Assembly: GCF_004010195.1 (NCBI RefSeq)
Contig: NC_057759.1
Coordinates: 5,052,657-5,116,656, forward strand
DNA length: 64,000 nucleotides
DNA from: Chiloscyllium plagiosum
Taxonomy: Eukaryota
Direction: 5' to 3'
A model generated the notes under the pieces. That model was not told the DNA's origin, searched no databases, and worked only from the letters and a program-made list of their open reading frames with translations. This document shows positions 7,140 through 64,000 of the stretch, one piece after another; position 1 is the first letter of the stretch; each line of letters begins with the position of its first letter. Both the position numbers and the translations under genes were made by a program.

Positions 7140-7810
7140 ATATGAATAGGAATGGTTTAGAGAGAGATGGGAAAAGTGGTGGCAAATGGGACTAGATTAG
7201 GTTAGGATATCTGGTCAGCATGGACTGAAGGGTCTATTTCTGTAGATCTCTATGACTCGACGACTCTTCAGTAATTCTTGCCCTGTCGGTGACCACAGTT
7301 TCCCTCCATCTCTGTATTTAACCCCAACTTCACTGATGGTTGTTGAAACAATGCAACAATGTGGCCTATTTGTCTATCTTCATTGTAACTTTGAAACTGC
7401 CCTTAATTACTGCAAATTTTAATGCAGTTCCTGAATGTCTACTTTGGATGAGGATTCAGTTTATCTATCTTCAAAGCTGTTGTGTAAACGTCAATGGGCT
7501 ACATGCCTTCTGTTTGTTAGAGGCAGCTGGTCACTCTTTGCTTTGAACGGAGGAAGTATTACAGCGTCTTAGTCCCTCAGGTGGTTTTCTGGAGGAAGAC
7601 ACAGGGACACCACCTGTAAATCAACATGAGGCTAGTCTGGTAATATTGCACTGATCATTGTCACATTGATTGCATCTTCATTAGGATGTGTGTTGATATT
7701 TCTTTAAAGCCAACAACTTAACCAGAACCACGGATCTGACTCCATTGTTTCCCTGAGCTGCTCCTTGTCTGGGGATTGTGTTTGTTTTAATGTGATTCGA
7801 TACCAATTGA

Positions 7811-7919
7811 TTTGGAGATGCCGGTGTTGGACTGGGGTGGACAATGTTAAAAATTACACATCAGGAGCTTCCAAAAAAAAACCTTGGACTTTAACCTGGT
7901 GTTGTGTGATTTTTAAATT
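7811..7919. mobile_element. Collapsed fold-back Penelope-like element (family of 10510-10710)
   Basis: 12-bp TSD GATACCAATTGA (7799-7810, 7920-7931); single unoccupied site in the paralog near 38390. Confidence 0.8.
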
Positions 7920-8195: not shown

Positions 8196-8537
8196 GAATG
8201 ACCCACAGCAGCTTCTTCCCGCTCTGCCTCCCTCAGCAGGCCCACACACAGCCCGAGAAAGGCCTCTCTCTTCCCCCCAGCCCGCTCACTCCAAGTTCCG
8301 GGACCAGTTCCTGCTCCGCTCGGCCTCTTACAAACAGCCCCCGGTTCTCCCTGAACTCACCCCGAATCAATCCCGGTCTCCCATCCCGATGTGCTGCTGG
8401 AAGGAGCCTGCTGTTCCCTCGCTTCCCTGGGCGCTGAAAAGGTTCGGTCCCAGACACAGTTGGGGCGGGAGTGAGCTGGAGGCAGAGCTGGATGATCAAA
8501 GCCATTTCCCTGCTCTGTCTGTCACTCAGTTTCCTCT
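8196..8537 (-). promoter_or_regulatory. GC-rich promoter/first-exon-like cassette, copy A, head-to-head with H4
   Basis: Reverse complement of 36763-37055 and 20384-20650, with internal deletions; GC box; splice-donor-like GGG|GTGAGT on the minus strand. Promoter function is inferred. Confidence 0.5.
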
Positions 8538-8647: not shown

Positions 8648-8968
<321 letters not shown>

Positions 8969-9000
8969 TCAAAAAACGACCCTTTTCCAGTGAACCCAAA

Positions 9001-9040
9001 GGCTCTTTTAGGAGCCACCCAAACCCTCCAATAGAGAGCG
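9001..9040 (+). terminator. Histone 3' stem-loop and downstream element of H4
   Basis: GGCTCTTTTAGGAGCC (9001-9016), then ACCCA and purine-rich ATAGAGAGC. Confidence 0.9.
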
Positions 9041-10509
9041 GAGACCTGAGGACGGGGAAGGCAGCGCAACACTAGTGTAGTGTTGTCGGTTATTTCACAT
9101 ATGCCGTAATTTAAAATTATTTCCATTCCGAAAATGTCCTAATACCGTGTTCTGCGGTGCGGCAGAGACCATTACGAGTGGACGGTCCACTTTTTTGCTG
9201 TTTACCGTGGCCAATGCTTTTATAATTGTAAGCATTCCTACAGTGTAGCTAAGATGCTATTCGGCGAATCGAGCCAACTGTTCTGCAACCTGGTTATTTC
9301 ATGTCCGCTATCGCATCGTGACTTGTAATTGTAAGATGTTGTAGCAGCATTCTGCCCATCCAGCTTGTCCATTCGATTATGCCTGATATTTCTCCCACTT
9401 ATTCTTGTGCCTGCTCCCCGTAACCTTCGTTTCTCTCTCGTGATTACCTGTCTGTCTCAGTAATAACATCAATGTGTACTTGGCTGTCCATGTCATGAAT
9501 CGTCTTTTATTTATTGTGGAACCCAGACATTTAATGTTACAAATTGCAGTATTCGTATTTCCGACGCATAATATTCGGCTCAGTTTTGTTTCTGGGAGCC
9601 GATGGATATCTTAATGGTGCGTTCTTTCCATCTGCCCGTTCAGACAGTGATTACAAATTGTCTTCAGGCAAGTAATAATCTGGATGAAATAAAAATATCT
9701 TGATCAAGTGTGCTTCTTTAATTTTATCGGTGTACACTGTATTAGCTCGACGGGCTTTCGATTGATTCACGGCGGATACAAGTTCGGTTGCTCATCCAGA
9801 GAGAGCAGAAAGTCATCGGTGTCATTAGTATTTCTATCGGAAGTTAGTTAAAATCAAAAACCGCAGGCAGCGGCAGTGAAATTTGCAACTAACGAGACCT
9901 TCATTCAGGGATTGTGAAATTTATGAAAAAATATAGTAATAAGTGTGATTTTAACATAAAAGTTTTGGTATTGGGTTAGATATTTGTGGAAAAACCCTAT
10001 CTCCTCATTGACTCCCTTTGCGTTAACATGGCTTGTGATGAGGTGGAGGCAGGAGAAAGAGGGGGAAAATGGCGCAGAGACCAACGGCTTATTTTCAAAT
10101 TTGTAAATGCCCGCCATCACGTATAAAAGAGCAGCAAATTTTACAGAGAACACATGAGTACGTACACGTTGACTAATTTCGTAATCGAAAAAGCAACGTT
10201 CGGACAATTTCACTTTACCCATTCCCGCATTTACAGCTGAAAAATGCCTCACTGGTGTTCAATCTGCTCTCTCTCTCTCCAGAAGCAGGGGATAAAAGAC
10301 TGGATAGGAACCGAGCAGAGAATAAAGCGCAGAGGGTCAGGGACCGTTCCTTACTATATCCTGCAGCGACACTGGGTCAACCCACCTCTTCCTAATGCAC
10401 TTAAAAGGAAATGTGAATCTAATGTGAGGTCAAACGCGATCAGGGTCATTCGAAACTCATAAGATATTATAACTAAAGACAGATCATTCAGGCAGTGACC
10501 GTTCAATAA

Positions 10510-10710
10510 TTCGGAGATGCCGGTGTTGGACTGGGGTGTACAAAGTTAAAAATCACAACACCAGGTTATAGTCCAACAGGTTTAATTGGAAGCACACTAG
10601 CTTTTTGCTATAAATTCTGTTACGATCGAGCCCTCCACAATCACCTGATGAAGGAGCGTCGCTCCGAAAGCTAGTGTGCTTCCAATTAAACCTGTTATGT
10701 GATTTTTAAC
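10510..10710 (+). mobile_element. Fold-back Penelope-like element containing a hammerhead motif
   Basis: Inverted arms; 12-bp TSD ACCGTTCAATAA (10498-10509, 10711-10722). Confidence 0.85.
10642..10676 (+). ncRNA. Minimal type I hammerhead ribozyme, family A
   Basis: CAC-CUGAUGA-A-GGAGC(GUC)GCUCC-GAAA-GC-UA^-GUG: intact core, helix I CAC/GUG, palindromic AGCU at helix III. Confidence 0.8.
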
Positions 10711-10789
10711 ACCGTTCAATAAGAAATCCTGTAGTCTAGGACACTTAGAATTTATCATAAAATGCGATTATTTCTCTGCTCCCATAGAC

Positions 10790-10913
10790 ATTCAGATGAA
10801 GGGATTTTGCACGAAACATCGATGTTCCTGCTGCTCGGATGCTGCCTGAACTGCTGTGCTTTTCCAGCACTGCACTCATCTAGACTCTGGTTTCCAACAT
10901 GTGCCCTTGTTTT
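10790..10913 (+). mobile_element. Penelope-like terminal-repeat fragment with a decayed hammerhead
   Basis: CAGATGAAGGGATTTTGCACGAAACATC; 10-bp TSD TCCCATAGAC (10780-10789, 10914-10923). Confidence 0.75.
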
Positions 10914-11027
10914 TCCCATAGACCGTAACAATATCCAATTAAATGGAGCGTGGAATTTATTGATGTCCGGGACAAGGCTAGCGCTCTCCACATTAAAAGG
11001 AAAATAAATGAATCCGACGGAAAGTTT

Positions 11028-11068
11028 AGCCCCTTTCACAGCTACTGTGAGTGGCTCTTAAAAGAGCC
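11028..11068 (-). terminator. Histone 3' stem-loop and downstream element of H2A
   Basis: Minus strand GGCTCTTTTAAGAGCC (11068-11053), then ACTCA and AAAAGGGGCT. Confidence 0.92.
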
Positions 11069-11098
11069 TTTTGGCAGTCAGATCCAAGAATGTCCGCT

Positions 11099-11660
<562 letters not shown>

Positions 11661-12345
11661 AGGGCCCGGGGAGGAGGGCGGAAAGCACCCGTGCCAAATC
11701 ATCAACCGCTTTCTTTCCAATTTGAAAAGCCCGCCAATTTCCAAACAAATGTTTTACATGAAAAATAAAGTACAAAAAACTGAGGACGTTTAAAAAACAT
11801 TAATCCAATTGTTAATTTACTTTTAGTTTACGCTCCGTGTTACTGTCCCTCATTTGCCGACATCTATCTGTCCATTTCTGATTTTGAAAGTGGGTTTTTT
11901 TCGAAACCTTGCAAAGAAGCTGAAACAAACCGGGCCAAACTGAAGTCTGCAACCGGTCTTTTCACTTCACATTTCTTTAGCACACCAAACATGCTGAGAA
12001 AGTGGCACACAACGTTCTTCCGGCTTACGATCAATAGAGAACACGGATTTTAGACGATCTTTTAAAGCCGTCCTCCCTTATCGCTCTCAATCAGATTCAA
12101 CAAAAGCTCGACATTTCAGTCCGGTAGCAGTGTTGGTGTTCTCTCGGTTCAGTTTGAAAGTCTCTCTCCGACAACAGGAAGTGGGACTGAAAGACGCGGT
12201 CACTTACTTTTTTGTCTGCCGCGGGTGAATATACAAGATGAAAAATGACTCACTTGTAAAAACAAATGCATATCGCACTAAAATTAAAAACACCTCGTCC
12301 AGAATCACATGTAAGCAAAACAATCCAATCGTAAAGAATTGATTT

Positions 12346-12383
12346 AGCTCTCAGGGATGTTGTGGGTGGCTCTTAGAAGAGCC
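12346..12383 (-). terminator. Histone 3' stem-loop and downstream element of H2B
   Basis: Minus strand GGCTCTTCTAAGAGCC (12383-12368), then ACCCA and TGAGAGCT. Confidence 0.92.
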
Positions 12384-12424
12384 TTTGGGTTGTGGATGTG
12401 TGTGTCTCAGTGCAATGCGGTCCT

Positions 12425-17104: not shown

Positions 17105-19595
17105 AATCAGTTTGGATTAGGAACTGGCTTTCTGAAAGAAGGCAGCAAGTGGTGGTTGTCTGGAGTCCGCTTACTAGTGGTGTGCCACAAGGATCTGTTT
17201 TGGGACCACTGCTGCTCGTCATTTTTGTAAATGACTTAGACGCAGGCATAGGTGGACGGATTAGTAAATTTGTAGATGACACTAAAGTCGGTGGAGTAGT
17301 GGATAGTGTGGAAGAATGTTACAGGTTGCAGGGGGACTTGAATAAACTGCAGAATTGGGCTGAGAGATGGCAAATGGAGTTCAATGCAGCTAAATGTGAG
17401 GTGATGGACTTTGGGAAGAATAACAGGAAAGCAGAGTAGGTGGGTCGATGGAAAGATTCTTGGTAAGGTGGATGTGCAGAGGGATCTTGGAGTCCATGTA
17501 CAGAGATCCCTGAAAGTTGACACCCAGGTGGATAATGCTGTTGAGAAGGCATACGATGTATCAGGTTTTATTCGTAGAGGGGTTGAGTTCCGGAACTGCA
17601 ATATCATGCTGCAACTATACAAAACGCAGATGCGGCCACACTTGGAATGTTGTGTACAGTTCTGGTTCCCATATTTTGGGAAGGATGTGGAAGCATTGGA
17701 AAAGGTGTAGAGGAGATTTACCATGATGTTGCCTAGTTAGGAGGGAAAGTCTTATGAGGAAAGGCTGAAAGACTTGAACCTGTTCTCATTGGCAAGAAGA
17801 AGGCTAAGAGGGGACTTGATAGAGACATTCAAGATGATCAGAGGTTTAGATAGGGTAGACAGTGAAAGTCTTTTTCTGAATGGCGGTTAGAAAAGGTTGT
17901 AAAAAAAAGGTGTTTGGCACGCTTGTCTCCTTTGGTAAGTATGCTGAGTTTAGGAGCTGGGACATCATGTTAGGGCTGCACAGGACATGGGTTAGGACAC
18001 TTTTGGAGGACTGTGTACAATTCTGGACACACTGCTATAGGAAGGAAGTTGTTAATCTTAAGAGGGTGCAAAAAATTGACAGAGTTGTTACCAGGATAAG
18101 AGGGTTTGAATTATTGGGAGAGGCTGAATAGGCTGGGGCTATTTTCCCTGGAGCCGCGGAAGCTGAGGGGTGATTTTTACAGGTGCTTATAAAATCATGA
18201 GGGCATCGATAGGATGAAAAGCCAAGGTCTTTTCCCTTGGGTGGGGGAGCATACAGGGCATAGGTTTAAGGTGAGAGGGCAAAGATTTAAAAAATAACCT
18301 GAGGAACAACCTTTTCAGGCAGAGAGTGATGTGCATATCGAATGAGCTTCCAGAGGAAGTGATAAAGGTGGGAATAATTACAACATTTAAAAGAAGCCCA
18401 GATGGGTAAATGAAACGGAAGGATTTGAAGGGATTTATGCCAAATTTATAATCCAGAGAAGGTATAGGGTGAAAGGAAAGGCTGGTATGCATAGGGAATG
18501 CTGGATGACTAAAGAAATTGAAGGTTTGGTTAAGGTATAGACAGGCTAGATCGAGGGAATCCTTAGAAGAGTATTAAGGCAGTAGGAGTATACTTAAGAG
18601 GGAAATCAGGAGGGCAAAAAGGGACATGAGATAGCTTTGGCAAATAGAATTAAGGAGAATCCAAAGGGTTTTTACAAATACATTAAGGACAAAAGGGTAA
18701 CTAGGGAGAAAATAGGGCCCCAAGCTGAAAATGTGTTCAGGAAACCTGAAGAAGGGCTTATGCCCGAAACGTCGATTCTCCTGTTACTTGGATGCTGCCT
18801 GACCTGCTGCGCTTTTCCAGCAACACATTTTCAGCTCTGATCTCCAGCATCTGCAGTCCTCACTTTCTCTAGAAAATAGGGCCCCTCAAAGATCAGCAAG
18901 GCGGCCTTTGTGGAGCCACAGAAAATACAGGAGATATTAAACGAGCATTTTGCATCAGTATTTACTGGGGAAAAGGACATGGAAGATATAGAATGTAGCG
19001 AAATAGATGGTAGCATCTTGAAAAATGTCCATATTACAGAGAAGGTAGTGCTGGATGTCTTGAAATGCATAAAGGTGGATAAATCCCCAGTACCTGATCA
19101 GGTGTACCCTAGGACTCTGTGGGAAGCTAGGGAAGTGATTGCTGGATCTCTTGCTGAGATATTTGTTTCATCGATAGTCACAGGTGAGGTGCCGGAATAC
19201 TGGAGGTTGGCTAACATGGTGCCACTGTTTAAGAATGGTGGTAAGGACAAGCCAGGGAACTATCGACCAGTGAGCCTGACGTCGGTGGTGGGCAAGTTGC
19301 TGGAGGGAATCCTGAGGGACAGGATTTACATGTATTTGGAAAGGCAAGGGCTGATTAGTTATAGTCAACATGGTTTTGTGCGTGAGAAATTATGTCTCAC
19401 AAACTTGATTGTTACTTCTTCAAAAAACTCAAAGAGGATATGATATGGGCAGAACTAGAGGGCATAGGTTTAGGGTGAGAGGGGAAAGATATAAAAGAGA
19501 CCTTAGAGCAACACTTACACACAGAGGGTGGTACGTGTATGGAATGAGCTGCCAGAGGAAGTGGTGAAGGCTGGTACAATTGCAACATTTAAGAG
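17105..19595 (+). mobile_element. Stacked CR1/HER1 LINE fragments from at least three insertions
   Basis: [10 protein letters not shown] and KFVDDT at 17150-17440; 3' ORF2 fragment at 17885-18445; PGNYRPVSLTS region at 18446-19595. Confidence 0.9.
18722..18870 (+). mobile_element. Penelope-like terminal repeat with hammerhead motif, family B
   Basis: CTGAAGA-A-GGGC(TTAT)GCCC-GAAA-CG-TC; perfect 15-bp TSD AGAAAATAGGGCCCC (18707-18721, 18871-18885). Confidence 0.85.
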
Positions 19596-20334
19596 NNNNN
19601 NNNNNNNNNNNNNNNNNNNNNNNNNNNNNNNNNNNNNNNNNNNNNNNNNNNNNNNNNNNNNNNNNNNNNNNNNNNNNNNNNNNNNNNNNNNNNNNNNNNN
19701 NNNNNNNNNNNNNNNNNNNNNNNNNNNNNNNNNNNNNNNNNNNNNNNNNNNNNNNNNNNNNNNNNNNNNNNNNNNNNNNNNNNNNNNNNNNNNNNNNNNN
19801 NNNNNNNNNNNNNNNNNNNNNNNNNNNNNNNNNNNNNNNNNNNNNNNNNNNNNNNNNNNNNNNNNNNNNNNNNNNNNNNNNNNNNNNNNNNNNNNNNNNN
19901 NNNNNNNNNNNNNNNNNNNNNNNNNNNNNNNNNNNNNNNNNNNNNNNNNNNNNNNNNNNNNNNNNNNNNNNNNNNNNNNNNNNNNNNNNNNNNNNNNNNN
20001 NNNNNNNNNNNNNNNNNNNNNNNNNNNNNNNNNNNNNNNNNNNNNNNNNNNNNNNNNNNNNNNNNNNNNNNNNNNNNNNNNNNNNNNNNNNNNNNNNNNN
20101 NNNNNNNNNNNNNNNNNNNNNNNNNNNNNNNNNNNNNNNNNNNNNNNNNNNNNNNNNNNNNNNNNNNNNNNNNNNNNNNNNNNNNNNNNNNNNNNNNNNN
20201 NNNNNNNNNNNNNNNNNNNNNNNNNNNNNNNNNNNNNNNNNNNNNNNNNNNNNNNNNNNNNNNNNNNNNNNNNNNNNNNNNNNNNNNNNNNNNNNNNNNN
20301 NNNNNNNNNNNNNNNNNNNNNNNNNNNNNNNNNN
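19596..20334. other. Assembly gap
   Basis: Run of N. Confidence 1.
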
Positions 20335-20650
20335 ACTCAGTGAGTGCAAGAGGTTTGTTTGAAACAGACCGCAATGGAGAGATCAGCGCCCAGGGAAGCG
20401 AGGGAACAGCAGGCTCCTTCCAGCAGCACATCGGGATGGGAGCCTGGGACACAGAGGGGGCTCCGAGACCGGGATTGATTCGGGGTGAGTTCAGGGAGAA
20501 CCGGGGGCTGTTTGTAAGAGGCCGAGCGGAGCAGGAACTGGTCCCGGAACTTGGAGTGAGCGGGCTGGGGGGAAGAGAGAGGCCTTTCTCGGGCTGTGTG
20601 TGGGCCTGCTGAGGGAGGCAGAGCGGGAAGAAGCTGCTGTGGGTCATTCT
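20335..20650 (+). promoter_or_regulatory. GC-rich cassette, copy B
   Basis: Nearly identical to 36920-37055 and to the reverse complement of 8196-8432; donor-like GGG|GTGAGT at 20485. Confidence 0.5.
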
Positions 20651-27731: not shown

Positions 27732-27995
27732 GAAGATTTGTAGCTCGGGTGCTCGTTGTTGTGGTTATGTTCGCCGAGCTGGGAATTTGTTTTGCAGACG
27801 TTTCGTCTCCTGTCTAAGTGACATCCTCAGTGCTTGGGCGCCTCCTGGGAAGCGCTTCTGTGATCTTTCCTCCGGCATTTATAGTGGTTTGTTTCTGCCG
27901 CTTCCGGTTGTCAGTTCCAGCTGTCCGCTGCAGTGGCCGGTATATTGGGTCCAGGGTCGATGTGTTTGTTGATAGAATCTGTGGATGAGTGCCAT
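27732..27995 (-). mobile_element. Penelope (Poseidon-like) 3' end
   Basis: Minus strand encodes WHSSTDSINKHIDPGPNI, related to the 59107-59343 ORF, and ends GAGCTACAAATCTT. Confidence 0.8.
27794..27833 (-). ncRNA. Minimal hammerhead ribozyme, family C
   Basis: GCA-CUGAGGA-U-GUC...GAC-GAAA-CG-UC^-UGC; helix I GCA/UGC. Confidence 0.7.
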
Positions 27996-28107
27996 ACATT
28001 TTGATAAAGCAAACCAAGGCACGAAATCCACACTTAATGGTAGGACATTGGGGAGTGTTGCTGAACGAAGAAACCTCAGTATGCCGTTGAAGATTTCCTT
28101 GAATGTA

Positions 28108-28280
28108 CTCCAACAGGTTTATCTGGAAGCACTAGCTTTCAAAGCACTGTTCCTTCTTCAACCACCTGATGAAGGTCAGTGCTTCAAAAGCTAGTGTTTC
28201 CAAATAAACCTGTTGGACGAAAACCTGGTGTTGTGTCATTTTTCACTTTGTCCACCCGAGTCCAACACTGGCACCTCCAA
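28108..28280 (+). mobile_element. Fold-back Penelope-like element, family A, with a decayed hammerhead
   Basis: Inverted arms around CAC-CTGATGA...AAAA-GCTA-GTG (28163-28196); nested in a CR1 fragment at 27995-28510. Confidence 0.75.
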
Positions 28281-32362: not shown

Positions 32363-32584
32363 GTACAAACAATGACTGCAGATGCTGGAAACCAGATTCT
32401 GGATTAGTGGTGCTGAAAAAGCACAGCAGTTCAGGCAGCATCCGAGGAGCAGTAAAATCGATGTTTCGGGCAAAAGCCCTTCATCAGGAATACAGCCTGA
32501 TGAAGGGCTTTTGCCCGAAATGTTGATTTTACTGCTCCTCGGGTGCTGCCTGAACTGCTGTGCTTTTCCAGCACCACTAATCCA
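32363..32584. mobile_element. Fold-back Penelope-like element, family B, with a CTGATGA core on each arm
   Basis: 15-bp TSD GAATT(C/A)GATAGCAGG (32348-32362, 32585-32599); unoccupied site in the paralog near 16560. Confidence 0.88.
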
Positions 32585-36762: not shown

Positions 36763-37055
36763 AGAGGAAACTGAGTGAGAGACAGAGCAAGGAAACATCC
36801 AGCTCACTCCCGCCCCAACTGTATCTGGGACTGAACCTTTTCTCCCCAATTCTGACTGTTCCTGAGCAGAGGAGCGCATGCGTGAGGCCCTCCCCCAGCG
36901 CTGCCGTTGAGGGGCATTTACTCAGTGAGTGCAAGAGGTTTGTTTGAAACAGACCGCAATGGAGAGATCAGCGCCCAGGGAAGCGAGGGAACAGCAGGCT
37001 CCTTCCAGCAGCACATCGGGATGGGAGCCTGGGACACAGAGGGGGCTCCGAGACC
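36763..37055 (+). promoter_or_regulatory. GC-rich cassette, copy C, with the most complete 5' part
   Basis: GC box at about 36809-36816, NRF1-like GCGCATGCG at 36874-36882; cut off at about 37055 by a Penelope element. Confidence 0.55.
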
Positions 37056-38252
37056 AGGAGGGGCGTTGGAAATGTGATAGGTGGAAAGAGGTCAAGGTGA
37101 AGGTGATGGGTCGGAGTAGGATGGAGGCGGAGAGGTCAAGGAGAAGACTGCAGGTCAGGAAGGCGGTGCCGGGCTGGAGGGATCCGGCTGAGACAAGGTG
37201 GGGGGAGGGGGGATGAAGAGACTGGTGGAGTCCAAGTTCATCCCCTGCGGTTGGAGTGTTCCCAGTCGGAAGATAAGACGCTCCTCCTCCGACCGTCGGT
37301 TTGTTGTGGTTTGGCGGTGGATGAGTCCAATGACCTGCATATCCTCGGTGGAGTGGGAGGGGGAGTTGAAATGCTGTGCCACAGGTTGGTTGGGTTGGTT
37401 CGTCCGGGTGGCCCAGAGGTGCTCTCTGAATCGCTCCGCAAGTAGGCTGCCTGTCTCCCCAATATAGAGGAGGCCACACCGGCTGCAGCGGATGCAGTAG
37501 ATGATGTGGGTGGAGGTGCAGGTGAATCTGTGGCGGATATGGAAGTTTCCCTTGGGGCCTTGGAGAGAAGTGAGGGGGGAGGTGTGGGCGCAAGTGTTGC
37601 ACCTCCTGCGGTTGCAAGGGAAGGTGCCGGGAGTGGTGGTTGGGTCGGTGGGGGGTGTGGATCTGACAAGGGAGTCGCGGTGGGAGTGGTCTCTACGGCA
37701 GGCTGATAGGGGAGGGGAGGGGAATATATCCTTGGTGCTGGGGTCTGTTTGGAGGTGGCGGAAGTGACGGCGGATGATGCGCTGTACATGGAGATTGGTG
37801 GGGTGGTAGGTGAGGACCAGTGGGGTTCTGTCCTGGTGGCGGTTGGAGGGGCGGGGCTCAAGGGCGGGGGAGCGGGAAGTGGAGGAGATGCGGTGGAGGG
37901 CACCGTCGACCATGTCGGGGGGGAAATTGCGGTCCTTGAAGAAGGAGGCCGTCTGTGTTGTGCGTATTTTGAACTGGTCCTCCTGGGAGCAGATGCGGCG
38001 GAGACGAAGGAATTGGGAGAATGGGATGGCGTTTTTACAGGGGGCAGGATGGGAGGAGGTGTAGTCCAGGTAGCTGTGGGAGTCGGTTGGTTTGTAGTAG
38101 ATGTCCGTGTTGATTCGGTCGCCTGAGATAGAAACAGAAAGGTCTAGGAAGGGGAGGGAGGAGTCCGAGACTGTCCAGGTGAATTTGAGGTCGGGGTGGA
38201 AGGTGTTAGTGTAGTGGATGAACTGTTCAACCTCCTCGTGGGAACACGAGGT
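37055..38252 (-). mobile_element. Penelope-like retroelement (Neptune-like), 5'-truncated, with an open RT C-terminus and GIY-YIG endonuclease
   Basis: About 365 uninterrupted codons: LPFLDL, TDIYYKPTDSHSYL, PCNRRRCNTC, IIYCIRCSRCGLLYIGETG, FRLGTLQPQGMN; CpG-rich, consistent with a young copy. Confidence 0.93.
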
Positions 38253-39369
38253 AGATATAGCACCGTTTATCCTCTCTCCAATAGGTTGTATATTGGGAGT
38301 TGGATATTGAACTGTGTCAGCATTCCCGGTGATGAGTAGTCCCATTCATGGAACTGTGCAGTTTTTACTCAGTTTCTCCATCTCACTCAATTGGTATCGA
38401 ATCATATGAAAAACAAACACAATCTCCAGACAAAGAGCAGCTCAGTGCAGCAATGGAATCCGATCCGTGGTTCTGTTTTAATTTGCTGGCTTATCCTAAC
38501 GAATATGCAATGAATGTGACATTGATCAATATTGCCAGACTCGCTTCACGTTGATTAATAGGCGGTGTCTCTCTATCTCCCTCCAGACAAATACCTGAGG
38601 GACTAAGACACTGTGATACTTCCTCGGTTCAAAGGGAAGTGTCACCAGCTGCCTCGAGCAAACAGCAGGTATGTAGCCCATTGACGTTTACACACAAGTT
38701 TTGAAGATAGATAAACTGAATCCTCATCCAAAATAAACACTCAGGAACAGCATGAAAATCTGCATTTTAATAAGAACATTTTCTACAATGTAGATAAACA
38801 AATAGATCATACTGTTACATAGCAGCTACCTCACAGATGGTTGTTGAAACTAAGTACAGAGATGGGGGGAAACTGCTCATCAACAGTTTCTCTCTCTCCA
38901 TTCTCAGTGCAAATCACCCCCATTTCCAATAAGTGTTATTATTCACAGCCATCAAGTCACAGAGATGTACAGCATGGAAAGAGATCCTTCGGTCCAAATC
39001 GTCTGTGCCAGTCAGATATCCTAACCTAATCTAGTCCCATTTGCCAGCATATTGCCCATATCCCTCTAAACCCTTCCTATTCACATACCCATTCAGGTGC
39101 CTTTTAAATATTGTAATTGTACCAGCCATCCATGCCGTTCATGATTTTATGAACCTCTCCAGAGAAAACAGCTCCACCCTTTCGGCCACTCCCTTGAGCT
39201 CAAATCCTCCAACCTGGATGAAGAACATTTACATGTAGTTTGTCTGTGACTGAGAAGGACAGAATTACTCCTTTACTGAATAGTTGACACATACAGAGAT
39301 GATAATTCAATAATGTGAATTCCAAACAATCTCTGCAAAAGTCTGAGTTTTCCTCACTCCTAAATGATC

Positions 39370-48892: not shown

Positions 48893-49416
48893 AGGGAGAA
48901 AGTGAGGACTGCAGATGCTGGAGATCAGAGCTGAAAAATGTGTTGCTGGAAAAGCGCAGCAGGTCAGGCAGCATCCAAGGAGCAGGAGAATCGACAGTTC
49001 AGGCATAAGCCCTTCTTCAGGAATCGCTAGTGAGAAAGGCCAATTTTGATGGTATTAGGCAAGAACTTACAAAAGCTGATTGGGCGCAGATGTTCGCAGG
49101 TAATGGGACGGCTGGAAAATAGGAAGCCTTCAGAAATAGGATAATGAGAATCCAGAGAAAGTATACTCCTGTTAGGGTGAAAGGAAAGGCTGGTAGGTAT
49201 AGGGAATGCTGGATGATTAAAAGAAATTGAGGGTTTGGTTAAGAAAAAGAAGGAAGCATATGTAAGGTATAGACAGGATAGATCGAGTGAATCCTTAGAA
49301 GAGTATAAAGGAAGTAGGAATATACATTCCTGAAGAAGGGTTTATGCCCGAAACGTCGATTCTCCTGCTCCTTGGATGCTGCCTGACCTGCTGCGCTTTT
49401 CCAGCAACACATTTTT
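48893..49416. mobile_element. Fold-back Penelope-like element, family B, enclosing a 300-bp LINE piece
   Basis: Arms at 48893-49024 and 49326-49416; TSD CAATAAAT(G/T)C. Confidence 0.82.
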
Positions 49417-52151: not shown

Positions 52152-52567
52152 ATGCAAAACTTGCGCCCACACCTCCCCCTTACTTCCCTCCAAGGCCTCA
52201 AGGGATCCTTCCATATCCGCCACAAATTCACCTGCACCTCCACACACATCATTTACTGCATCCGCTGCACCCAATGTGGCCTCCTCTATATTGGGGAGAC
52301 AGGCCGCCTACTTGCGGAACGTTTCAGAGAACACCTCTGGGACATCCAGACCAACCAACCCAACCACCCCGTGGCTCAACACTTCAACTCCCCCTCCCAC
52401 TCCACCAAGGACATGCAGGTCCTTCGAATCCTCCATCGCCAGACCATAGCAACACAATGGCTGGAGGAAGAGCACCTCATCTTCCGCCTCGGAACCCTCC
52501 AACCACAGGGGATGAACTCAGATTTCTCCAGTTTCCTCATTTCCCCTCCCCCCACCTTGTCTCAGTC
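52152..52567 (+). mobile_element. Penelope-like GIY-YIG fragment
   Basis: IIYCIRCTQCGLLYIGETGRLLAERFREH...FRLGTLQPQGMN. Confidence 0.92.
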
Positions 52568-52769
52568 CAAAATGCATTTCATTACATTTCTCTGCATTGG
52601 AATTCATCTGCCAAGTTTCTGCCCATTTGGCCAACTTGTCATCTACCTGTGAAGTCACTCAGCATCATCCTCACAATTCACTCTTCTCCCTGGGTTAGTA
52701 TCAACTGCGAATTTAGAGATTATATCCTCAACACCCAACTCCTAATCATTTATATAACAATGTAGTTTT

Positions 52770-54239: not shown

Positions 54240-54759
54240 GCGCTGCTGGGCACTTTATATCCTCAGCTGTGATAAGTGATGTTGCAGATATGGGCGGAGA
54301 AATGGCAGATTGAGCTTAATCTGACAAAGTGTAAGATGCTGGACTTTGGGAGATCAAATGTTAAGGAACAGTATACAGTTAGTGGTTGGACTATGAGCAT
54401 CTTTGATGTACAGAAGGATCTTGGGGTTCAAGTCTATAGCTCCCTGAACGTGGCCACACAAGTAGATAGGGTGGTATCTCGAGGACGACATTTGGCATGC
54501 TTGCCTTATTGGTCGGAGAATTGAGTCAGGATATCATTGCAGCTTTATAAGACTTTGTTTAGGTCATACTTAGAGTATTGTGACAAAAGATTAATTCTGT
54601 CCTTCTCAGTTACTAAGAGCTGAAATGTTTCCTTCAATACCTGTACTCACTATCTACTTCATATATGGTTGTTCAAGCTACCAGCATCGTCTCTTTGTTC
54701 ACCTCAATTGTAATGTTATATCAATTCTAAAGTTCAGAATCCATGAGGATGGCCTCAAT

Positions 54760-55480
54760 TGGGACCTAGGGTTCCTGTCACACTACAGGTGTCTCCAATA
54801 AACCATACACTCTCTCTCACGCACACACTCACACAGACCCTCTCTCCTCCACATGCTTCCTCTCATACACACACACACACACACACACTCCATCACACTC
54901 ATACACACACTTTACCAAGCATGCGCACACACATTCTCAGGTGCATTCACACTGACATGCACACACTCTCACATGTAGTCACACATAAGTGACTGGGGTG
55001 AATTTGCATTTGCAGAATTATATTTGCAGATACATTCTGTTTTGCTCAATCTGCAGGCAGTCAATCCATGTAATATTTTATAAATTCCCACTTTGGAACT
55101 AGAACCAGCCTTACTTAAGATTGGGATAGAGTCAGACTCTAACCTCACACCTTTAATACATTTTCTGAGCTGAGATGTCACCCTTTTTAAAATAAAACCT
55201 TAAAATAAAACCTTAAGTGATTTTGACAATGTGACTTTAAACAAGTTCTGGGATGTATATATTAATGAACTGCAACCCATTCGAAAAGATGAATTACTGA
55301 ACAGTAATCTAGATTTGTTCAATATATCATTTCAGTTGCATGACACTGTAATCTTTTGCTATAAATTCTGTGTCTTACGATCCTGTTTCACAGCTACCTG
55401 ATGAAGGAGCAGCGCTGTGAAAGCTCGTACTTCCAAATGAACCTGTTGGACTGTAATCTGGTGTTGTGTGATTTTTTATC
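54760..55480 (+). mobile_element. Longer family-A Penelope-like 3' region with a CA-rich tract and hammerhead motif
   Basis: Shares TGCTATAAATTCTG...TACGATC and the terminal repeat with 10510-10710; TAC-CTGATGA...GAAA-GC-TC-GTA at 55395-55429. The 5' boundary is uncertain. Confidence 0.7.
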
Positions 55481-55670
55481 TTAAGAGTATTGCATTCAGT
55501 TGTGATCGGCACATTACAGGAAAGATGTGGTGGTTTTAGAGAGGGTGCAGAAGAGGTTTGCCAGAATGTTGACCAGATTAGAGGGTATGAACTATAAAGA
55601 GGAGCTAGAAAAACCCTTCTGAGTGGCAGAGGTTGAGGGCAGACTTAATAGAAGTCTATAAAGGTTTGAG

Positions 55671-55865
55671 AAGATTTGTAGCTCAGGTTGAGGTTCTGGA
55701 TCCAGTTTTGCTCGCTGAACTGGAAGGTTCATTTTCAGACGTTTTGTCACCATACTTGGTAACATCATCAGTGAGCCTCCGGATGAAGCACCAGTGGTAT
55801 AGCCTGTTTCTATTTGTGTGTTTAGGTTTTCTTGGAAAGGTGACATAATTTCCTGTGGTGATGTC
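55671..55865 (-). mobile_element. Penelope (Poseidon-like) terminal repeat with hammerhead motif, family C
   Basis: Minus strand TCA-CTGATGA-T-GTTACCA...TGGTGAC-AAAA-CG-TC-TGA (55774-55735); ends GAGCTACAAATCTT. Confidence 0.75.
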
Positions 55866-60294: not shown

Positions 60295-61478
60295 CCAAAA
60301 GTTCAAACCCCTCTCTTCCTTTCTTTTCTATATATTTCTCTCTCTTCTCCATTTAATCATAATTCAAATGGTTTCATTTCTGTTGCTCTTTGCTAGTCTT
60401 TTGCCTCTAACTCAAGTTGCTTCATTTTCCATTGAATTTTAGCCATCTCTGAAGATTCTGATGGTGTTTCCAACAAACGTAAATGCTGAGCTACTGCAGT
60501 AATTATCTCTCCTTTCCTCATGGAAGACACGGACTCAACCCCAGCAAGTCCAACAACCCTAATCCCAAATCAGAACTACAGAACAAATCCTACAAAGAGC
60601 CCCCTAATTGGTATGGACCAATTTGAGGATCCCCTCAAAACATTTGAAGTAGCCCGGATCCTAACTTTGAGGAGAAAGTGAGGTCTGCAGATGCTGGAGA
60701 TCAGAGCTGGAAATGTGTTGCTGGAAAAGCGCAGCAGGTCAGGCAGCATCCAGGGAACAGGAGAATCGACGTTTCGGGCATAAGCCCTTCTTCAGGAAGA
60801 AGGGCTTTTCCTGAAGAAGGGCTTATGCCCGAAACGTCGATTCTCCTGTTCCCTGGATGCTGCCTGACCTGCTGCGCTTTTCCAGCAACACATTTACAGC
60901 TCGGATCCTAACTTTGCTAGTTGTTTTAAGCAGGTGTAACACAGATATTCAAGGAGTGATGTAGCTGGTCAAACCACATTTAAACCACTTTTAAACAAAA
61001 CAGAACTGATTTCCAGGATTATCAAATGAAACACAACCAAATGCTCCTATGCCTTAAAAGAGAACAGAATATTAAATAACTTTACCTATCCAAAAACCCT
61101 ACAGATTATACAAACTTAATGATGCTGTTCCCAATACTTGCAATAATCCCGACAAACAGCCGTTGGCACAAAAAGATAAAATCAAACACAGGGTCTTACA
61201 GGAGAGCTGTCAGAGAGATAGTACCAGCATGGACTTGCTTCTTTGGGTTCAGCAGCTTTTTCAACTGCCTGACTGCTTTCAGTCAATAGCCAGACAGCCA
61301 AAAACCACATCAAACCAGAGAAAAGCTGAGCTGGGAAAACTGGGACATTCACGTTTCATTGTATAAGTGTTCTTTTTAAAAATGTGGAAGCCTTTTGCCT
61401 GAGACATTACCTGTAGCTATAATCAAAATGTCCCTAAAACCCATCAACTCCGACTTTTCGGAGCCTATGTCTTTTACA
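60295..61478 (-). mobile_element. Gypsy LTR and start of gag, same family as 1-1993
   Basis: Minus strand begins TGTAAAAG at 61478; 60330-60478 is the reverse complement of about 975-1125. Confidence 0.78.
60670..60901. mobile_element. Fold-back Penelope-like element, family B, with a hammerhead motif on each strand
   Basis: Near-perfect ~90-bp arms; perfect 15-bp TSD CGGATCCTAACTTTG (60655-60669, 60902-60916). Confidence 0.9.
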
Positions 61479-61499
61479 AGCTTGTTAAAGGATCAGCAT

Positions 61500-62730
61500 C
61501 ATCACAGCAGACTGGTTCAAAAAGTAAAAGCTGTGGGATACAGGGTAATGTGGTGAATTGGATGCAAAGTTGGCTTAGTAACAGGAAACAAATGGTAATG
61601 GTTGATGGCTGCTCTTGTGAATGGAAAGCTGTTTCAAGTGGTGCTCTGCATGGCTCAGTGGTGGGACCTCTGCTGTTTGTTTTATACATTAAGGATTTGG
61701 ACTTGAATGTGGTGGGCAGATTTGTGAAATTTGCAGATGACACAAAAATTGGCCATTTAGGGGACAGCTATCAGCTCCAAAAGTATTACAGATGGTTTGG
61801 TGGAGTGGGCAGGAAAGGGGCAGGTGGAGTTCAGCTCTGAGAAGTGTGAGGGAATGCATTTTGGGAAGTCAAACAGTAAATGGGAACAGACAATAAATGG
61901 GAATATATTGAGGGGGCAGGGTAAGTGAGAGATCTTGGTGTGCAAGTGCATGGGTCCCTAAAGGTAGATGGGGTTGTAAAGAAGGCACGTGGAATGCTCT
62001 CCTTCATTGGCACAGGGATGGAATTCAAAAGTAAGGATATAAGAACGAAACCGGATAAGGCACTGGTGAGGCTACAACTGGAGTATTGCGTGCAGTCGGG
62101 TCACTACATCACAGGAAGGACGTCATTGCTCTGGAGAGAGTGCAGAGGAGATTTACTGGAATGTTGCCAGGGCTGGTGAATTGTAGCTATCGGGAGAGAT
62201 TGGAGAGGTTGGGGTTATATTCTTTAGAACAGAGGTGCCGTGATTAAGGAATATTAAATAGTGAATACTAAATAGTGAGCTACTAATGAAGGAGTAGAAC
62301 TCCGAAAGCTTGTACTTCCAAATAAACCTGTTGAACTATAACCTGGTGTTGTGTGATATTTCACAAAATAGTGAGGGGGAGAGATTAGAGTACACAGGAG
62401 GAACCTGTTTCCTTTGGCAGAGAGTTCAAATACCAGGGATCATTGATTCAAACAAAGCGATGTTGGATTACAAGATATGTGAGGAAAATGTTTTTTTATG
62501 CACAGAGTGGTGGGTATCTGGAATTTGCTGCCTGATTTGGTGGTGCAGACAGAGACCCTAAACTCTTTTAAACAAAAATCCTTGGAACTGCACCTCAAGT
62601 TCCGTTAACTGCAAGGCTACAGTCTGCAGCTAGAAGATGGGATGAGGAAGGGCATCTGGGGGTCTTTGGGTTGGCATGGACAAGATGGGCTGCATAGCCC
62701 CCTTTGTGCTGTATTATTTTTATGATTCAA
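61500..62730 (+). mobile_element. Old CR1 LINE 3' part with a nested family-A Penelope terminal repeat at 62280-62365
   Basis: SGALHGSVVGPLLF, KFADDT; the nested repeat is flanked by AAATAGTGAG on both sides. Confidence 0.85.
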
Positions 62731-63454
62731 CAGTTATCAATTGGACCCTGCCAGTCTTTGCAGTGTGAGTATGGAAATATATTGACCATATAATGAATGT
62801 TACAGTTTGATAACTATACCCACACATTCTCCAAGCAGGAACTGACAGGTATAGATCAATACCTAAACTCACATATCCACACACCCACTTGCATCATGTA
62901 GGCCCCATTTATGGAGCTGTATGGGTGTTGTTTTGTTTCTGGATCTTATTCCTTTGGGCTGAGAATTTTAATAAAAGAGTGGACAAGGAGCAGCTCAGGA
63001 CAGGAGTGGAATCAGACCCGTGGTTCTGTTTAAATTGCTGGCTTTAAATAAAAAAAACCTTAATGATGAGGAATTGAATGTTACATTGATGTTGCCAATC
63101 ACAACTGATGTTGATTTACAGGAGGTATCTCCTCTGTCTTCCTCCAGGCAAGTACTCAAAGGACCAAGATAATGTAATATTCCCATGGTACAGAGTCAAG
63201 TGTGACCAGCTGCTTCGAACAAACAGCAGGTATGTTACTGCTGTCAGAGCGAAGAACATCCTTTCCACAGTCACAGAGTGAATTGAGTCAGGTTCACATT
63301 GAGTTCCATTTCCAGAGAGATTATGTTCAAACCAAGAGTCAAACACCACCGAGGAAACGGAAGTTTATATTTTTAAATTTATATTCTCAATGCATCCTAC
63401 CCAGTTTCAATCAACTTGAATGAATCCTCACCCAAAATATACACTGTATTAAAA

Positions 63455-64000
63455 TCTGAACATCGAGCAGTACAGGACAGGAAAGGTTTCCTTCAACCCA
63501 CGATGTTGTACCGAACATGCCGCCAAAATGCAAGTAATCTCTTCTGCCTTCCCTTGGTCCATAACCCTCCATTTCTTGCACATTCATTTGTTTACCTAAA
63601 AGTCCTTACAATACCATTATCATATCTACCCCCATCTCCACCTCTGGCAGTGTGTTCCACTGCTACCTCTCTCTTTGTTTAAAAATAAAACTGCCCCTTA
63701 TGTCTCATAGAGTCGTACAGCATGGAAACAGACCCTTTGGTCCAACCCGTCCAGATATCCCAACCCAATCTACTCCCACCTGCCAGCACCTGGCCCATAT
63801 CCCTCCAAACCCTTCCTATTCATGTGCCCATCCAAATGCCTCTTAAATGTTGTAATTGTACCAGCCTCCACCACTTCCACTGGCAGCTCATTCCATACAC
63901 GTACCATCCTTTGTGTGAAAACATTGTCCCTTAGATCTCTTTTAAATCTTTCCCTTCTCACTCTAAACCTATGCCTTCTAGTTCTGGACACCCCGACCCC
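63455..64000 (-). mobile_element. Two CR1/HER1 3' ends
   Basis: Tail sequences and QRMVRVWNELP on the minus strand. Confidence 0.88.

Follow-up and report, generated by a model that had tools for sequence, protein, structure and literature searches.

The window, i.e., the whole 64,000-nucleotide stretch of Chiloscyllium plagiosum DNA analyzed here, contains confirmed reading frames of histones H4, H2A, and H2B. The H4 and H2A genes converge, and the spacer between them holds a hammerhead motif inside a palindromic insertion of a Penelope-like element (PLE). An Rfam search places a further histone stem-loop at 12342–12388 on the minus strand. The features of this region are as follows.

8657–8968, plus strand: histone H4 gene, with a stem-loop at 8996–9041 (plus)
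10498–10509, plus strand: left copy of a 12-bp target-site duplication
10510–10710, no strand assigned: palindromic PLE insertion, 201 bp
10575–10604, plus strand: arm perfectly complementary to 10667–10696; in the predicted fold it covers the cut site together with helices I and III
10642–10676, plus strand: minimal type I hammerhead motif of family A; sequence intact, cut predicted after 10673
10711–10722, plus strand: right copy of the 12-bp target-site duplication
10791–10822, plus strand: family B motif, older and broken, also within this spacer and common to the paralogous locus L130
11099–11491, minus strand: histone H2A gene, with a stem-loop at 11028–11073 (minus)

A non-coding repeat is seen at approximately 8285–8520, upstream of H4, and again at 20300–20650 and 36900–37060, the latter two without H4; the shared copies are possibly remnants of decayed histone units.

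The motif at 10642–10676 reads CAC-CUGAUGA-A-GGAGC-GUC-GCUCC-GAAA-GC-UA-GUG, with a CUA triplet at the cut site. A generic hammerhead core pattern matches the window eight times, whereas 100 shuffles average 0.01 matches and none reaches eight; the hammerhead motifs of the window are, as sequence patterns, real. The core CUGANGA...GAAA...UH with an open helix I is present, and is broken at 62281 and 55735. The extra base after A9, the G10.1–C11.1 pair, and the palindromic 15.2–16.2 are present as well, some of these letters being fixed by the search patterns. On re-reading, the letters and coordinates of the motifs given in a preliminary description of this DNA are correct, as is its account of helix III as a loopless AGCU or ACGU palindrome, the exception being AUGU at 32497. 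Rfam covariance models yield no hammerhead family among 23 matches to the window at E up to 10, which the loopless helix III may explain. Further motif copies and PLE fragments of the window are the following.

18744–18775, plus strand: family B with an intact core; helix I has lost its 5′ strand (1–2 bp left)
27794–27833, minus strand: family C, G-C variant of helix I, A·A mismatch in helix II
32458–32489, minus strand, and 32495–32526, plus strand: family B head-to-head pair, helix III non-palindromic in both
37155–38345, minus strand: PLE fragment with RT-thumb and GIY-YIG, from the family in which motif B is found at other genomic sites
49328–49359, plus strand: family B, core intact, 2-bp helix I
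52152–52652, plus strand: second GIY-YIG fragment, same PLE group as 37155–38345
55395–55429, plus strand: family A, subfamily with U-A in helix I, helix II broken (GGAGC/GCUGU), same damage in paralog L215
55735–55774, minus strand: family C, U-A variant of helix I, core G12 changed to A, AAAA in place of GAAA
60766–60797, minus strand, and 60809–60840, plus strand: family B head-to-head pair, motifs intact
62281–62313, plus strand: family A, core broken (CUAAUGA); the core of paralog L218 is also broken, and it lacks the U-A pair of helix II

The minus-strand family B copies at 32458–32489 and 60766–60797, which stand head-to-head with their neighbours, were absent from the preliminary description. 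In the plus-strand copies near 32497 (the one with AUGU) and 60811, the 5′ strand of helix I is cut off, leaving 1–2 bp. Further family A stubs at 28106–28278 and 7810–7919 are palindromic or broken and have no intact motif; the stub at 28110–28217 gives a spurious Rfam microRNA match. The blocks 54282–55815 and 61057–64000 have segmental paralogs elsewhere on the same contig (L215, L217, and L218 on C50), 77–86% identical and carrying the same old family A and C insertions, so the histone cluster probably expands in blocks together with its repeats.

Exact patterns for the intact core and helix II give 22,591 family A, 125,831 family B, and 1,732 family C matches in the 3.56-Gb genome (approximately 150,000 intact copies for the three families); the reversed-pattern control gives zero for each family. 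The ascription of the motifs to minimal hammerheads of PLEs is borne out by their position: in all three families the motif lies on the same strand as frames with RT and GIY-YIG, just downstream of them. In family A loci (L012, L017/L061, and others), RT and GIY-YIG come after an inverted end and are followed by a 3′ region with the sense motif, approximately 0.5 kb past the frame in L061; a protein search with the family A RT returns 22,103 candidates, 150 scored at 86–100% identity. Motif B lies approximately 180 bp past a PLE frame of the 37155–38345 type (L071, L074, L075, and L086, among 30 family B loci), and motif C approximately 190–220 bp past a Poseidon-like frame (L104, L112, L113, L117, and L118, among 30 family C loci). 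The A and B proteins are approximately 30% identical, and identity across the three families is approximately 30% or less. A CX4CxxC linker occurs in the A and B proteins and is absent from the C fragment examined. In the accessible part of Craig et al. (2021, PMC8557442), a CX2-5CxxC linker marks the Neptune/Nematis clade vs. Penelope/Poseidon; from the linker motif alone, A and B would be of the Neptune/Nematis type and C of the Poseidon type.

All core catalytic letters, the G10.1–C11.1 pair, and the palindrome are kept in these three distant families, and the persistence of the core, the extra base, and the palindrome despite the distant proteins is the best sign of selection. Helix I of family B has 2 bp in most copies and 4–5 bp in one subfamily. 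Among 33 loci, no full-length single open frame with partial-tandem repeats or two tandem motifs is found, the copies being broken or gap-containing. Long "open frames" considered as full-length elements proved to be assembly gaps or simple repeats and were rejected. In one locus (L191:5300–9400) a perfect short-period tandem array of approximately 4 kb interrupts the family A PLE frame. In our search of the hammerhead, PLE, shark, and elasmobranch literature and of large ribozyme surveys, which did not extend to one key paper and to some supplements with possible shark motifs, none of the papers retrieved describes these families.

The palindromic insertion that encloses the 10642 copy had been missed previously. 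Its left arm (10510–10604, minus sense) is the reverse complement of the element 3′ end, tail included; its right arm (10602–10710) is the forward 3′ end without the tail; the arms join at a TTT overlap, and the 12-bp target duplication on either side is perfect. Ends with and without the tail are both common: a tail of 30–40 bases is present on 33 of 79 distinct 3′ ends (L003–L060). The insertion has the 5′ truncation, the adjacent inverted copy, and the tail at one end that are described for EN+ PLEs (Craig et al., 2021, partial text), and it agrees with the two reverse-transcription starts demonstrated for the anole PLE (Frangieh et al., 2024, PMC11167929, likewise seen in part). The forward arm 10602–10696 is 100% identical to copies on many contigs, so this family A subfamily is young. 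A search for empty sites with the left flank of the insertion gives 41 matches, of which the best 20 were examined. Two of the 20 spacers carry the insertion, namely the window and a duplicate approximately 1.08 Mb away on the same contig with a 99–100% identical spacer; it occurs in none of the other 18, where the target is single and uninterrupted in 12, has small deletions in 3 and larger ones in 2, and is not reached in 1. The insertion, missing from these paralogous histone spacers, is recent.

Between the two units that carry it, which lie 1.08 Mb apart, the spacer 9050–11027, insertion included, is 99–100% identical (L063/L126 at G000:C50, approximately 3.986 Mb). The H2A genes (96%) and the H4 genes (98.7%) of these units are below the spacer in identity. 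The high spacer identity is likely due to the assembly or to a tract of recent gene conversion or recombination.

On the H4 strand, 10575–10604 and 10667–10696 form a perfect 30-bp hairpin across the cut site. The predicted fold of the insertion has −84.9 kcal/mol (z = −8.25), and none of 200 shuffles is as stable. The cut-site bases pair with the left arm with a probability of approximately 1.0, while helix I forms with 0.0 and helix II with 0.06; the ribozyme fold would cost 18.4 kcal/mol in the whole insertion, but 6.6 once the left arm is removed and 3.3 when the motif is taken by itself, all these figures being equilibrium predictions. Hence the 10642 motif, though intact in sequence, is predicted to be shut by the structure of its own insertion, an example of how a motif that looks intact can be predicted dead through its surroundings. 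The left arm is transcribed first, which would leave the ribozyme little time to fold. The nearest motif on the same strand is the broken family B copy at 10791, and there is no tandem partner.

Compensatory changes had been proposed for both helix I and helix II; they appear to hold for one helix I pair (2.3:1.3) in families A and C and are not supported for helix II. The four A and C variants cited as evidence (55395, 62281, 27794, and 55735) are all damaged. In 27 distinct family C motifs, the 2.3:1.3 pair is CG in 15, UA in 8, GC in 2, and unpaired in 2; double-change cells number 10 vs. 3.1 in shuffles (0/500), and double change is seen in only 1 of 11 pairs. In family A, 31 of the first 100 UAC copies (1,447 in all) end with GUA, and 56 of the first 100 GUA copies (779 in all) start with UAC. 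Scaled counts give 31% vs. approximately 2%, an odds ratio of approximately 20, with the CAC/GUG cell estimated from 20/30 loci; this change marks one subfamily change rather than many events. A set of 49 distinct family A motifs, enriched for UAC on purpose, has 8 double-change cells vs. 5.1 (33/500 shuffles). The search patterns fixed most helix II letters, leaving this helix only partly free to vary, and the statistics ignore phylogeny. The helix II compensation claimed at 62281 was rejected: its paralog L218 (83% identical over 1.3 kb) has a broken core and C opposite A, so the U at 62281 is likely a later product of decay in a dead copy. None of the 49 distinct family A motifs is doubly changed at that pair. 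Overall, compensatory change appears real but thin.

From the literature, self-cleavage, present or past, is reasonably expected of these families. According to the accessible parts of Cervera and De la Pena (2014, PMC4209133), a single minimal motif gives no cleavage and dimers cleave weakly, and the anole motif is reported to cut only with protein (PMC11167929, partial text); as far as these two sources are available, they describe the in vivo role of animal minimal hammerheads as unshown and cleavage in vitro as weak. A crude genome test of one young family A subfamily shows no excess of copies starting at the predicted cut: 61 matches start there, compared with 23 and 173 at the positions 4 bases upstream and downstream of it, respectively. 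Of the 20 cut-start matches inspected, 11 are junctions; the other 9 are whole copies with small indels or substitutions. In the listed downstream (+4) controls, about half the matches share a single fold-back joint at the palindromic letters of helix III, which recurs as a minimal palindromic insertion of family A. Three loci (L238, L244, and L249) have family A copies of approximately 55 bases beginning at the predicted cut or beside it, with apparent target duplications on either side.

We read the motifs as type I hammerheads of the minimal kind, carried by the end repeats of three PLE families, with the 10642 copy lying in a recent 201-base palindromic insertion, predicted to be folded shut and likely a neutral passenger; we give this reading a probability of approximately 0.9. 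Being recent and predicted to fold shut, the 10642 copy is likely harmless and no cutter of histone RNA. Mechanistically, the PLE protein would make a 12-base staggered cut in the target; each target strand would prime reverse transcription, from one start site that includes the tail and another that does not, and the resulting pair of short cDNAs would be joined at the TTT overlap. In the full element RNA, the motif may cut weakly, as a dimer or with the help of the PLE protein, and selection would act on the full element, between subfamilies, while the scattered stubs decay; both points follow the literature. The dimer context in particular is taken from there, since no full-length open-frame element with two tandem motifs occurs among the loci examined.

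Could the copies instead be non-autonomous, retrozyme- or SINE-like ribozyme elements that spread by their own cleavage and circularization? Most copies are indeed short and have no reading frame, and retrozymes are reported in one chondrichthyan genome (bioRxiv 10.64898/2026.07.22.740005, partial text). The 5′ ends of the copies, however, are ragged, and there is a gradation from them to copies of like sequence that contain RT; neighbouring motifs of the window stand head-to-head on opposite strands, without the tandem units of at least two same-strand motifs that characterize retrozymes; and young family A copies starting at the cut are not in excess. Such an origin is thus very unlikely. 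It is unlikely, to a lesser degree, that the motif has lost its cutting activity in these families and is retained for some other function, for instance to bind a protein or to signal reverse transcription. The 2-bp helix I of most family B copies and the lack of a footprint at the cut in young family A would agree with it, as would two observations on the anole element in the available part of PMC11167929: ribozyme mutants leave insertion in vitro unaffected, and no RNA-seq ends fall at the cut. Against it stands the retention of the catalytic core, the G10.1–C11.1 pair, and the palindrome in three distant families.

The preliminary description suggested further that the 10642 copy could cut H4-strand read-through RNA; such cutting would help to insulate the convergent H4 and H2A genes. 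The intact motif is on the same strand as H4, 1.67 kb beyond the stop of that gene, and occurs also in the second unit with the 99–100% identical spacer. Read-through from histone promoters is known from the lampbrush loops of newt oocytes. Yet the proposal is unsupported, as the insertion is young and monomeric, without a tandem partner, and its cut site is predicted to be hairpin-locked, captured by the inverted arm that is made first; moreover, H4 has its own stem-loop. The motif is missing in all 18 other spacers (best 20 of 41), and the conservation among gene copies expected of a domesticated genic hammerhead of the Clec2 or RECK kind is accordingly not seen. Among 34 wider regions, 12 have converging H4 and H2A, and none of these 12 further complete pairs, four of which overlap the 18, has an intact spacer motif; broken family B motifs occur in two spacers (on both strands in one, on the H2A strand in the other). 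Based on the genome density of intact motifs, the chance of at least one intact family A motif on the H4 strand in 20–40 spacers is 0.11–0.21, and that of at least one intact motif of any family is 0.55–0.8. The literature searched on histone read-through and on histone clusters with ribozymes describes no histone role for these families. Cutting of H4 read-through RNA by the 10642 copy is, in sum, extremely improbable. A related idea is highly improbable as well: the young stub would give two histone units a latent H4 read-through cut site, should a PLE protein or a second copy open the hairpin, and it would be one of approximately 150,000 intact motifs that could dimerize in trans, cutting germ-line host transcripts.

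A bias of spacer insertions toward the H4 strand was considered and rejected, as it is not upheld in the 12 complete H4–H2A pairs. At three further loci (L217, L225, and L227), the regions examined contain the spacer, H2A, and an intact A or B motif, and H4 is missing from them; in these and in the window, all intact motifs 3′ of H2A lie opposite to the H2A strand, and none is intact on the other. This strand skew in four units, small in numbers and unexplained, counts against the passenger reading.

The reading of the motifs as PLE hammerheads with a passenger copy at 10642 extends a known feature of PLEs to another genome. The very high copy number offers material for studies of covariation and of the insertion mechanism; the finding would matter more if the stubs cut host RNA in cells.

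Compared with known systems, the motifs resemble most closely the minimal hammerheads of PLE pLTRs, as far as the accessible text of Cervera and De la Pena (PMC4209133) describes them: both are of type I, with the extra base between 9 and 10.1, G10.1–C11.1, palindromic 15.2–16.2, a short helix I, and several families per genome, and the copies are mostly single and truncated, with pairs on opposite strands. Differences are the shorter helix II of families A and B (4–5 bp) and the approximately 150,000 intact copies here vs. 4,000 in coelacanth and 9,000 in Xenopus, counts obtained by different search methods; no shark is named in the part of that text examined or in the searchable supplement. 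The retrozymes of the bioRxiv preprint, in its available part, are likewise hammerhead-bearing, PLE-derived, and non-coding (animal non-LTR retrozymes), but form tandem repeats with same-strand motifs, whereas the window copies are single or head-to-head. EN+ PLEs of the Neptune/Nematis and Penelope/Poseidon groups share with our insertion the truncated and inverted copies and the one-end tail; the linker of PMC8557442 (partial text) is matched in A and B and absent in the C fragment, so that the clade is given by the linker only. The Anolis Poseidon element PAc, in the accessible part of PMC11167929, similarly has a hammerhead followed by two 3′ end points a 30–40-base tail apart and an AT-rich target; for PAc, protein-assisted cleavage was shown biochemically. 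Judged by its testable features, the motif is one of the minimal hammerheads that Cervera and De la Pena describe in PLEs.
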